Source: Escherichia coli
GTDB taxonomy: Bacteria; Pseudomonadota; Gammaproteobacteria; Enterobacterales; Enterobacteriaceae
Length of the DNA stretch: 64,000 nt
Direction: 5' to 3' (one strand)
Assembly: GCF_022846255.1 (NCBI RefSeq)
Contig: NZ_AP025682.1
Below, one piece after another: positions 61,704 through 64,000 of the stretch (position 1 is the first letter of the stretch; every line of letters begins with the position of its first letter). The position numbers and the translations under genes were made by a program. The notes under the pieces were generated by a model. That model searched no databases. It was given only the letters and a program-made list of their open reading frames with translations, and had not been told where the DNA came from.

Positions 61704-63077
61704 TTATTTTAATAACCGCACCCGGCACGTTTTTCCTTTAATCTTCCCACCCTGTAGCTGTTTCCATGCTTTATGAGCAACAGCCTGACGCACCGCGACA
61801 TAGACATGCGCCGGATGCACGGCAATTTTGCCAATATCTGCGCCATCAAGCCCGATGTCTCCTGTCAGCGCACCTAATACATCACCCGGGCGCATTTTGG
61901 CTTTTTTCCCGCCATCGATACACAACGTTGCCATTTCTGCTTTCAGCGGCACAATGGAACTATTTGCTGGCGGCGTTTGCCAGTTAAGTTTTATCTGCAA
62001 CATGTCAGAAATGATATTGGCCCGCTGTGCTTCTTCCGGGGCACAGAAACTGATCGCCAGACCGCTATTTCCTGCACGAGCTGTACGACCGATGCGATGT
62101 ACATGAACTTCAGGGTCCCACGCCAGCTCAAAGTTCACCACCAGCTCAAGCGATTTTATATCCAGACCACGCGCAGCAACATCAGTCGCGACCAGTACAC
62201 GGGCGCTACCGTTAGCAAAACGTACCAGGGTCTGATCGCGATCGCGTTGCTCCAGATCGCCGTGTAACGACAATGCACTTTGCCCTACTTCATTCAGCGC
62301 GTCACAGACAGCCTGGCAATCTTTTTTGGTATTGCAAAACACCACGCAAGAGGATGGCTGATGCAAGCTTAATAACCGTTGCAACAGAGGAATTTTGCCT
62401 TTGCTGGATGTCTCATAAAATTGTTGTTCAATAGGTGGCAGAGCATCTGTTGAGTCAATTTCAATCGCTAAAGGATCGCGTTGCACTCTTCCGCTGATTG
62501 CGGCAATGGCTTCCGGCCAGGTTGCCGAAAACAGAAGTGTCTGCCGAGATGCTGGCGCAAAACGGATGACATCATCAATGGCGTCACTAAATCCCATATC
62601 CAGCATGCGGTCGGCCTCATCCATCACCAGCGTATTCAACGCATCCAGTGATACAGTGCCTTTTTGCAGGTGATCCAGCAAACGGCCCGGCGTTGCCACG
62701 ATAATATGCGGCGCATGTTGCAACGAATCACGCTGCATACCGAACGGTTGACCACCGCACAACGTCAAAATTTTGGTATTTAGCAGAAAACGCGCCAGCC
62801 GACGCAATTCACCTGCCACCTGATCCGCCAGTTCACGCGTAGGACACAGCACTAAACCCTGGGTTTGAAATAGCGACACATCAATTTGCTGTAACAAGCC
62901 GAGGCCAAAAGCCGCCGTTTTGCCGCTGCCGGTTTTCGCCCGCACGCGAACATCTTTTCCGGCAAGGATCGCCGGAAGCGCGGCGGCCTGCACCGGCGTC
63001 ATGGTTAAATAACCCAACTCATTAAGGTTTGTGAGTTGGGCGGGAGGCAAAACATTCAGGGTAGAAAAAGCGGTCAC
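61704..63077 (-). CDS. dbpA: ATP-dependent RNA helicase DbpA (DEAD-box, 23S rRNA hairpin-92 specific), 457 aa
   Basis: ORF track; motifs AKTGSGKT, DEAD, SAT and C-terminal RNA-binding domain. Confidence 0.95.
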   Translation of the reverse strand: MTAFSTLNVLPPAQLTNLNELGYLTMTPVQAAALPAILAGKDVRVRAKTGSGKTAAFGLGLLQQIDVSLFQTQGLVLCPTRELADQVAGELRRLARFLLNTKILTLCGGQPFGMQRDSLQHAPHIIVATPGRLLDHLQKGTVSLDALNTLVMDEADRMLDMGFSDAIDDVIRFAPASRQTLLFSATWPEAIAAISGRVQRDPLAIEIDSTDALPPIEQQFYETSSKGKIPLLQRLLSLHQPSSCVVFCNTKKDCQAVCDALNEVGQSALSLHGDLEQRDRDQTLVRFANGSARVLVATDVAARGLDIKSLELVVNFELAWDPEVHVHRIGRTARAGNSGLAISFCAPEEAQRANIISDMLQIKLNWQTPPANSSIVPLKAEMATLCIDGGKKAKMRPGDVLGALTGDIGLDGADIGKIAVHPAHVYVAVRQAVAHKAWKQLQGGKIKGKTCRVRLLK

Positions 63078-63106
63078 AATCTATTCTCGTGGTCATCGAC
63101 GCAAAG

Positions 63107-63280
63107 TCAGCAGGCGCGTATCCTCGCAGATCTACGCTCACGATGCGACAATTTAATCGGTTCTTCATCGGGTGGTGGGTCAGGCATGGGTTGCGGGCGA
63201 GGGATCGGATCAGGTACTGGAACAGGATCGCCAGGAATCGGTTCAGGGACAGGAATTTGCAAATAAATAAGTGTCGTCAT
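63107..63280 (-). CDS. candidate proline-rich small protein (57 aa) immediately upstream of dbpA
   Basis: ATG at 63280-63278 preceded by GGAGGG; translation MTTLIYLQIPVPEPIPGDPVPVPDPIPRPQPMPDPPPDEEPIKLSHRERRSARIRAC; stop 29 nt before dbpA start; below ORF-track cut-off. Confidence 0.4.
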   Translation of the reverse strand: MTTLIYLQIPVPEPIPGDPVPVPDPIPRPQPMPDPPPDEEPIKLSHRERRSARIRAC

Positions 63281-63554
63281 ATTTCCCTCCGGTCATTGGG
63301 TGGACTCTTAAAGGGTAGACGCTGATAAATAACAGGCAAAAAAAAGCCGACTCATCAAAGTCGGCGTCGTACGAATCAATTGTGCTATGCAGTAATTCAA
63401 AAAAGGAAGTAAGACAATATGGAGCGCAACGCCCATCGCTTGACGTTGCATTCACCTGCAAGAGAGATATTGCCCTGAATGGGTAGAGAGTTTATTGACT
63501 TCGCTCAAACTTTACGGCGTTTTTGTATACAGATAGCCGGAAAAATTGCTTTTG

Positions 63555-64000
<446 letters not shown>

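Follow-up and report, generated by a model that had tools for sequence, protein, structure and literature searches.

The window that we analysed is the whole stretch of 64,000 nt of Escherichia coli DNA (assembly GCF_022846255.1, contig NZ_AP025682.1). Its minus strand carries an open reading frame of 57 codons that begins with ATG and extends from 63280 to 63107 in the ORF list (Table 1). The 57-amino-acid translation is MTTLIYLQIPVPEPIPGDPVPVPDPIPRPQPMPDPPPDEEPIKLSHRERRSARIRAC. The ORF lies between the small RNA FnrS and dbpA. Its stop codon ends at 63107 and the GTG of dbpA is at 63077 on the same strand, leaving a gap of 29 nt. A sequence-only reading of this DNA had described an ORF with a GGAGGG Shine-Dalgarno (SD) sequence, a body of PxP repeats and a basic tail shortly before dbpA, with a mirror Gly-rich frame on the opposite strand. 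We found all of these, with the proline-rich ORF on the minus strand and the mirror frame on the plus strand.

Table 1. Features of the fnrS-ynaL-dbpA region. Positions are those of the window; entropy is given for codon positions 1/2/3.
Feature	Position	Strand	Entropy	Basis or remark
FnrS sRNA, immediately upstream of ynaL	63342..63459	-		Rfam RF01796, 134.8 bits, E=1e-25
FnrS terminator stem	63365-63346	-		terminator scan
FnrS terminator T-run (eight Ts)	63345-63338	-		terminator scan
Candidate ynaL promoter TTGCCT-N16-TACCCT; -35 uses the last two FnrS terminator Ts	63312..63339	-		putative, by inference
Shine-Dalgarno GGAGGG, ATG 4 nt further on	63285..63290	-		sequence; GGAGG-type SD at the matching position in most ynaL-bearing species
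ynaL ATG	63280..63278	-
ynaL CDS, 57 codons plus stop, "proline-rich small protein YnaL"	63107..63280	-		ORF list, RefSeq, Pfam, K-12 identity
ynaL codons 1-16, variable N-terminal segment	63233..63280	-	1.36/1.10/1.77 (codons 2-16)	entropy; sequence and length vary among genera
ynaL codons 17-40, conserved acidic PxP core (…DPVPVPDPIPRPQPMPDPPPDEE)	63161..63232	-	0.24/0.20/1.33	entropy, pN/pS; protein coding, purifying selection
ynaL codons 35-37, PPP inside DPPPD, predicted EF-P-dependent stretch	63170..63178	-		sequence
Block A, CCGATTAAATTGTCGCAT, ynaL codons 41-46, dbpA promoter -49 to -32	63143..63160	-	0.16/0.12/0.15	nucleotide-level constraint
ynaL codons 47-49, variable spacer	63134..63142	-	1.12/1.26/1.51	variable; in-frame stops in 12 species
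Block B, AGATCTGCGAGGATACGCGCCTGC, ynaL codons 50-57 ("RSARIRAC" tail), dbpA core promoter -22 to +2	63110..63133	-	0.13/0.28/0.05	nucleotide-level constraint
Extended -10, TGC-GAGGAT (TG 63128-63127, hexamer 63125-63120)	63120..63128	-		alignment to outgroups; TSS distance
GC-rich 8-nt discriminator ACGCGCCT, between -10 and TSS	63112..63119	-		nearly invariant
dbpA TSS, G of ynaL codon 57 (TGC)	63111	-		Kim 2012, PMC3415461
dbpA 5'UTR, 34 nt, with conserved SD-like CGAGA(A/G/T) at 63088-63084	63078..63111	-
dbpA CDS, GTG start, 457 aa	61704..63077	-		ORF list; RefSeq annotation
Mirror Gly-rich antisense ORF, 76 aa, TTG start	63036..63266	+		not a gene; stops in 7/67 species

The proline-rich ORF is the known E. 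coli small-protein gene ynaL and is not new; the sequence-only reading had allowed for its being annotated already. The coordinates of ynaL in the RefSeq annotation of strain Nissle 1917 correspond exactly to the ORF, and the genes there are in the order zntB, ynaL, dbpA, ttcA (in a feature table without RNA genes). Strains of the B2 type, Nissle 1917 and CFT073 among them, are 100% identical to the window DNA. The 57 amino acids are identical to those of YnaL from K-12, whose DNA differs at only a few synonymous sites. A query of 551 nt around the ORF matched 5392 of the 5426 complete E. coli genomes, once in each. The label of the feature under the match was "ynaL: proline-rich small protein YnaL" or "protein YnaL", and dbpA was the next gene. 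A query with the ORF alone matched the same 5392 genomes at 95% identity or more. The ynaL label was present in 29 of 30 rows sampled across these matches; the weakest row read "hypothetical protein". The protein also matched the Pfam family PF23677 "YnaL" (PF23677.1) over its full length (residues 1-57 to model positions 1-57 of 57; i-Evalue 2.2e-40, 136.8 bits). That is, the ORF belongs to the YnaL family by a full-length HMM match, by the K-12 sequence and the fnrS-ynaL-dbpA locus, and by the translation reported in the literature.

Translation of ynaL has been observed in two ways. In ribosome profiling with tetracycline (TetRP), Nakahigashi 2016 (PMC4909307, supplementary file 3, row 92) reported an initiation peak for an ORF at 1407332-1407505 (U00096.2) with the same sequence, named IVP7, and the start of that ORF (1407332) is exactly the ynaL ATG. 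Start-site mapping at this ATG, which the sequence-only reading had proposed, is therefore already published. IVP7 was among four new small ORFs that were picked for chromosomal Venus fusions (Nakahigashi 2016, PMC4909307). VanOrsdel 2018 (PMC6001520) placed ynaL between fnrS and dbpA at K-12 positions 1409308-1409481, with 57 amino acids and the identical sequence, and described it as adjoining dbpA and as an earlier, unidentified positive in tetracycline-inhibited ribosome profiling. In that study a chromosomal SPA-tagged YnaL was seen by immunoblot, among 36 short ORFs whose products were detected. The gene came to light by ribosome profiling in 2016, was confirmed by tagging in 2018 and has since acquired RefSeq and Pfam entries. 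The TetRP peak and the tagged product together bear out that this ORF, which has a strong SD, is genuine and translated, and a substitution pattern of the coding type (below) lends further support. No function is assigned to YnaL in the literature that we searched, where VanOrsdel 2018 is the sole mention by name; Weaver 2019 does not mention it.

We compared the dbpA locus in 80 species, represented by one genome each (dbpA 81-98% identical). A proline-rich ORF lies directly upstream of dbpA in 67 of them. The genera that carry it include Escherichia, Citrobacter, Enterobacter, Klebsiella, Raoultella, Salmonella, Kosakonia, Leclercia, Lelliottia, Superficieibacter and Pseudocitrobacter; within this set of species it is absent from Kluyvera, Cedecea, Dryocola, Siccibacter and Atlantibacter. 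In a protein search we obtained 162 homologue clusters, all 162 of them enterobacterial and bearing PF23677. We conclude that ynaL is a genuine, translated small-protein gene that is restricted to the Enterobacteriaceae.

Selection acts differently on different parts of the gene (Table 1). Entropy calculated for each codon position showed a three-base periodicity in the core. The pN/pS of the core was 0.134 at a pS of 0.635, and that of dbpA in the same genomes was 0.097 at a pS of 0.633. Because the two ratios are close and pS is equal, selection on the core as protein is almost as strong as that on the helicase, and its synonymous divergence is normal. None of the 67 species has a stop codon in the sense frame of the core. 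Seven residues are invariant (P21, P27, P29, P31, P33, D34 and P35), and conservation extends to residues other than proline (D18, D24, R28, Q30, D34, D38, I42, K43 and S45). The triplet PPP is present in 63 of the 67 species; three others (E. albertii and two Citrobacter species) have DPSPD and are without any adjacent prolines, and one has DPPQE. Within E. coli and Salmonella, rare alleles differ by in-frame repeat slippage of ±10, 11 or 15 codons, and a few alleles, each seen once, have a frameshift or have lost the stop codon. The conservation and substitution check that had been suggested for this ORF shows a preserved reading frame (67/80 species; core pN/pS 0.134). Judged by these sequence comparisons, with their periodicity and the absence of sense-frame stops in 67 species, the ORF is far beyond chance.

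The sequence-only reading had left the coding status unproven because of the mirror frame. It could be that the Gly-rich antisense ORF is the real frame, or that the repeat does not code for protein, with both frames there by accident. The antisense frame does have a similarly low pN/pS (0.174), but the two frames share wobble positions, so that this similarity cannot discriminate between them. Other evidence can. The antisense frame is interrupted by stops in 7 of the 67 species, as opposed to none for the sense frame, and it would start with a TTG inside antisense dbpA with no SD. In contrast, the sense strand has a conserved SD and ATG, a TetRP peak and a tagged product. We regard the chance that the antisense frame is real, or that neither is, as negligible, and we rejected the antisense ORF as a gene. 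This settles the ambiguity: the sense frame is the coding one.

The last third of ynaL presents a different picture from the core. From the sequence comparisons described below, we predicted a dbpA transcription start site (TSS) at 1407498-1501 (U00096.2) before we found the published one. Kim 2012 (PMC3415461, supplementary file 2) gives an experimentally mapped dbpA TSS at 1407501 (NC_000913.2), supported by 126 reads and defining a 5'UTR of 34 nt. Since ynaL at 1407332-1407505 corresponds to 63280-63107 of the window, this TSS falls in the last codon of ynaL. The sequence given upstream of the TSS by Kim 2012 (PMC3415461) is ACCGATTAAATTGTCGCATCGTGAGCGTAGATCTGCGAGGATACGCGCCTG, and it corresponds to blocks A and B.

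The elements of a promoter can be recognized in these blocks. The mapped TSS is preceded, at a distance of 9 nt, by an extended -10 with the TGn and the hexamer; the E. coli type of dbpA promoter has GAGGAT as this hexamer, followed by ACGCGCC. Block A of the E. coli type contains an A/T tract and a -35-like TTGTCG, which is atypical in sequence and in its distance of 20 nt from the -10. The conserved stretch has a counterpart in the outgroups Cedecea, Dryocola, Siccibacter and Atlantibacter. It aligns there to ATGACC-N17-TGC-TAG(A/C)(A/C)T, with block A on the ATGACC -35 and with -10 forms TGC-TAGAAT, TAGCAT or TAGACT at a 17-nt spacer from ATGACC. By its sequence this outgroup form is a good sigma-70 promoter of the extended -10 class, and it lies 30-45 nt before the start of dbpA. 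Because the distance between -35 and -10 is atypical, standard promoter rules do not fully explain the invariance of block A. A possible UP-like element is the A/T tract at about -46 to -38. Stringently controlled promoters have discriminators that resemble this GC-rich one, and it might by inference have a role in stringent control. A consensus sigma-70 scan of positions 62950-63560 flagged no promoter; the mapped one of dbpA and the candidate of ynaL both depart too far from consensus for such a scan.

Codons 41-57, which include the basic tail, are conserved mostly as dbpA promoter DNA and not as protein. In 12 of the 67 species ynaL ends early, after IK(L/M)S(H)R. In 10 of these 12 species block B reads AGATCTG(C/A)GAGGATACGCGCC even though it is untranslated; in the other two it differs by one or two bases. 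The sole common variant of block B is a change of TGC to TGA, found in 11 species, at the free "n" of TGn. In Kluyvera there is no SD and no proline-rich body, and both blocks follow directly after the FnrS terminator. Since the DNA is kept in the 12 early-stop species and in Kluyvera, the tail should not be taken for a functional protein motif. We also considered a 14-codon mini-ORF (MSH..RSARIRAC, as in Kluyvera), and we rejected both it and the protein motif because 12 species carry an earlier or internal stop while the DNA is invariant.

A few positions of block A vary in Kluyvera. This points to additive constraints, from coding and from the promoter, in the species that have ynaL. The dual use as coding and promoter sequence accounts for conservation at all three codon positions. 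Because 12 of 67 species stop before the overlap, the coding use seems to be optional and the promoter is the dominant constraint. The arrangement is like other embedded promoters in that the -10, discriminator and TSS of dbpA lie within codons 50-57 of ynaL, and it is unlike them in that the coding use of the overlap is seemingly optional. Our analysis adds that the dbpA promoter occupies the last third of ynaL and that the basic tail is not a protein motif.

These results bear on the idea, raised in the sequence-only reading, that ynaL is a leader-like regulatory ORF for dbpA. In such a model, an EF-P- or proline-dependent pause at DPPPD would set dbpA expression in cis, through coupling, Rho access or promoter interference. 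Precedents are the proline-codon leaders mgtL and mgtP, which, like SecM, TnaC and the Erm leaders, are ribosome-stalling regulatory leader peptides. Like these, ynaL is short, has a strong SD and immediately precedes a larger gene in the same orientation; its DPPPD motif is expected to slow ribosomes, and its amino acid sequence is conserved. Several observations fit with such a leader: ynaL adjoins dbpA on its upstream side in 67 of 80 species, 63 of 67 retain PPP, the strong SD is conserved, and the core has about the length of a peptide filling the exit tunnel during a pause at PPP. In addition, dbpA has a GTG start and a weak SD.

However, the mapped TSS lies in codon 57, 4 nt before the ynaL stop, so that the main dbpA mRNA, with its 34-nt 5'UTR, does not include the ynaL coding body. 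Stalling leaders are unlike ynaL in this respect. In the Kim 2012 dataset ynaL is not inside the 5' leader of the dbpA mRNA. Nor does the junction have the alternative RNA structures, the SD sequestration or the terminator that typify such systems. A terminator scan gave no terminator-like site between ynaL and dbpA. RNAalifold, with 19 species, gave -4.6 kcal/mol and 0 compensatory pairs, that is, no conserved structure, and in E. coli the minimum free energy of the junction was not unusual relative to shuffled sequences (z=+0.48). The only plausible helix at the junction is broken by the change of TGC to TGA without compensation. We therefore rejected an RNA element or attenuator there, on the grounds of no covariation, no excess stability and no terminator.

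Variation among species argues in the same direction. In 47 species, 27-30 nt separate the stop of ynaL from the start of dbpA; the distance is 14-23 nt in 8 others and 57-63 nt in a further 12, and so ranges from 14 to 63 nt. Kluyvera has lost the SD and body of ynaL and yet keeps the promoter and dbpA. The stall motif is not universal either, as E. albertii and the two Citrobacter species with DPSPD have no adjacent prolines. Finally, tagged YnaL protein accumulates. Together, the TSS, the variable gap, the losses of PPP and Kluyvera argue against an obligatory cis-regulatory leader. The proposal that ynaL controls dbpA as a leader is not supported, and we consider a cis-acting, pause-dependent leader unlikely. 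Any role of this kind would be a minor one, on rare read-through transcripts.

As for transcription of ynaL itself, Kim 2012 (PMC3415461) lists a TSS for FnrS at 1407153 and, next, that of dbpA at 1407501, with no ynaL TSS between the two in that list. We found a candidate ynaL promoter (Table 1), and the sequence CTACCCT or CTACGCT is kept at a fixed distance across the genera that have ynaL. The FNR regulon paper does not mention dbpA.

It is also conceivable that ynaL is translated and that the peptide itself is functionless. In this case the act of translation would matter, for example by protecting FnrS read-through or P1 transcripts from Rho, or by affecting traffic at the dbpA promoter. 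YnaL has no known function or partner, its N- and C-terminus are dispensable or variable, and the body is lost in Kluyvera, all of which would be compatible with a role for translation alone. But specific residues other than proline are conserved in the core while synonymous sites have diverged as in dbpA, a pattern that translation alone would not require. We consider this explanation very unlikely.

We examined what kind of protein the core might form. An AlphaFold model of YnaL, made with an alignment of 34 sequences, was an extended chain with a pTM of 0.22, in which pLDDT was about 90 only at residues 21-40. The sole secondary structure element in the model, as assigned by DSSP, was a helical turn of three residues in the variable N-terminus. 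A sequence search found no relatives in the PDB. The model fits with a core that would form a rod of the polyproline-II type and lack a globular fold. Hydrophobicity of the N-terminus is not consistent from genus to genus, making a membrane anchor unlikely.

Synthesis of YnaL may depend on EF-P. The DPP, PPP and PPD motifs contained in DPPPD rank among the strongest EF-P-dependent ones. Residues 34-38 (DPPPD) provide at least three consecutive prolines in such a strong context. By the strength of the motif, as motif rules would have it, YnaL synthesis probably needs EF-P. We found no dataset from an efp background that covers ynaL in the literature that we searched.

Based on these results, we favor a composite view of ynaL, to which we assign a probability of roughly 0.85: a free N-terminus, a core selected as protein, a tail that bears a promoter, and transcription of dbpA mainly from its own promoter. 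According to this view, the first ~16 residues vary freely. The core of about 25-29 residues (DPxPxPDPIPRPQPMPDPPPDEEPIK) is under purifying selection at the protein level. The last ~17 codons overlap the dbpA promoter, comprising the A/T tract, the TGn-extended -10 GAGGAT, the GC-rich discriminator and the TSS in codon 57. Transcription of dbpA occurs mainly from this promoter inside the 3' end of ynaL, and ynaL is not needed as a leader. As its most likely mode of action, YnaL would be a free peptide, soluble, acidic and rich in proline, whose synthesis should depend on EF-P because of the DPPPD stretch. The rigid PxP rod would probably bind a partner, and the peptide would thereby act in trans.

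A peptide that acts in trans would be no more than the default reading of conservation at the protein level. Nascent arrest peptides are also conserved at the amino acid level, which speaks against a trans-acting reading. A role in cis would likewise be in keeping with the tight synteny with dbpA (67 species) and with a PPP that 63 of 67 retain.

The composite view has consequences for how ynaL is studied. The part of YnaL that selection protects would be an acidic PxP rod of ~25 residues. Because the tail is the dbpA promoter, a full deletion of ynaL or a tag at its 3' end is expected to disturb transcription of dbpA as well, and the phenotypes would be confounded.

A more speculative notion connects the peptide to DbpA itself. 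The PxP core, as a nascent chain paused at DPPPD or as a free polyproline-II peptide, might engage the exit tunnel or the peptidyl-transferase region near hairpin 92 of 23S rRNA, the target of DbpA. This would link EF-P or proline status to assembly of the 50S subunit or to traffic at the embedded dbpA promoter. We think of this as a long shot. If it is true, ynaL and dbpA are a functional pair and more than mere neighbors.

Similarity of YnaL to TonB is compositional only, and the X-Pro repeats that both have account for the weak matches. The match to the TonB model NF008084 of NCBIfam was 20.8 bits against a cut-off of 315, and that to the Pfam domain TonB_N (PF16031) had an E-value of 0.75; we rejected homology. 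YnaL, at only 57 amino acids, lacks the transmembrane anchor and the C-terminal domain of TonB. It is like the proline-rich spacer of TonB in its alternating X-Pro repeats and acidic residues, which would be expected to form a rigid polyproline-II rod.

We found that the 3' end of ynaL, the annotated 57-codon gene for a proline-rich small protein, contains the dbpA promoter. The promoter consists of an A/T tract, a TGn-extended -10 element (GAGGAT), a GC-rich discriminator of 8 nt and the mapped transcription start site (TSS). This sequence is nearly invariant over ~74 species, more so than is usual for promoters. In addition, 20 nt separate the -35-like TTGTCG from the -10 element here, compared to 17 nt in the outgroup genera. 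Based on the near-invariance and the 20-nt spacing, the sequence suggests that the promoter block is under an additional constraint, for example a putative binding site for a regulator.

Features from the FnrS sRNA gene to the dbpA promoter (window positions)
Feature	Position	Strand	Remarks
dbpA promoter	63110-63160	-	overlaps last 17 ynaL codons; TSS mapped at 63111
TTGCCT-N16-TACCCT	63312-63339	-	conserved; directly after FnrS terminator
FnrS sRNA	63342-63459	-	full-length Rfam match, 134.8 bits

The ynaL ATG is 61 nt downstream from FnrS. The conserved TTGCCT-N16-TACCCT element, the -35 of which reuses the last Ts of the FnrS terminator, is a possible promoter for ynaL. A published map (Kim 2012, PMC3415461) reports no TSS at this candidate, so expression of ynaL might depend on read-through of the FnrS terminator instead. 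If so, then ynaL would be FNR-dependent and induced anaerobically.

The adjacency of FnrS and dbpA is common to the genera that have ynaL and to Kluyvera. It was not present in the loci compared from Cedecea, Dryocola, Siccibacter and Atlantibacter. In the Kluyvera dbpA loci (L071, L072, L073, L076, L078 and L081), the ynaL Shine-Dalgarno sequence and codons 1-40 are cleanly missing at ~115 nt upstream of dbpA. FnrS is still in place in these loci, as are the two promoter blocks (ynaL codons 41-46 and 50-57) and the CTACCCT element. What remains is a 14-codon mini-ORF, (M/L)SH..ARSARIRAC*, that starts with an ATG or TTG matching ynaL codon 44. A secondary deletion probably explains this arrangement in Kluyvera.

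In-frame length variants of YnaL are rare and arise by slippage between PxP repeats. Homologues were shorter by 11 codons (E. coli E69, locus L004, and protein P0088) or 15 codons (P0112), or longer by 11 codons (P0001) or 10 codons (P0053, from a Salmonella). A few singleton alleles have a frameshift or stop-loss and run into the +1 frame across the dbpA start.

Among complete E. coli genomes, 34 had no match to the ynaL locus, which is chromosomal, and 6 of the 5392 matches were on records labelled plasmid. Replicons that were mis-assigned, or deletions close to the Rac prophage site, could account for these cases. The neighbourhood of ynaL has another tiny annotated ORF, just upstream of zntB and past the end of the window. 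RefSeq annotates this 15-codon ORF as 'protein YnaN' (gene label ydaN) in Nissle 1917 (locus L001, 1402-1449).
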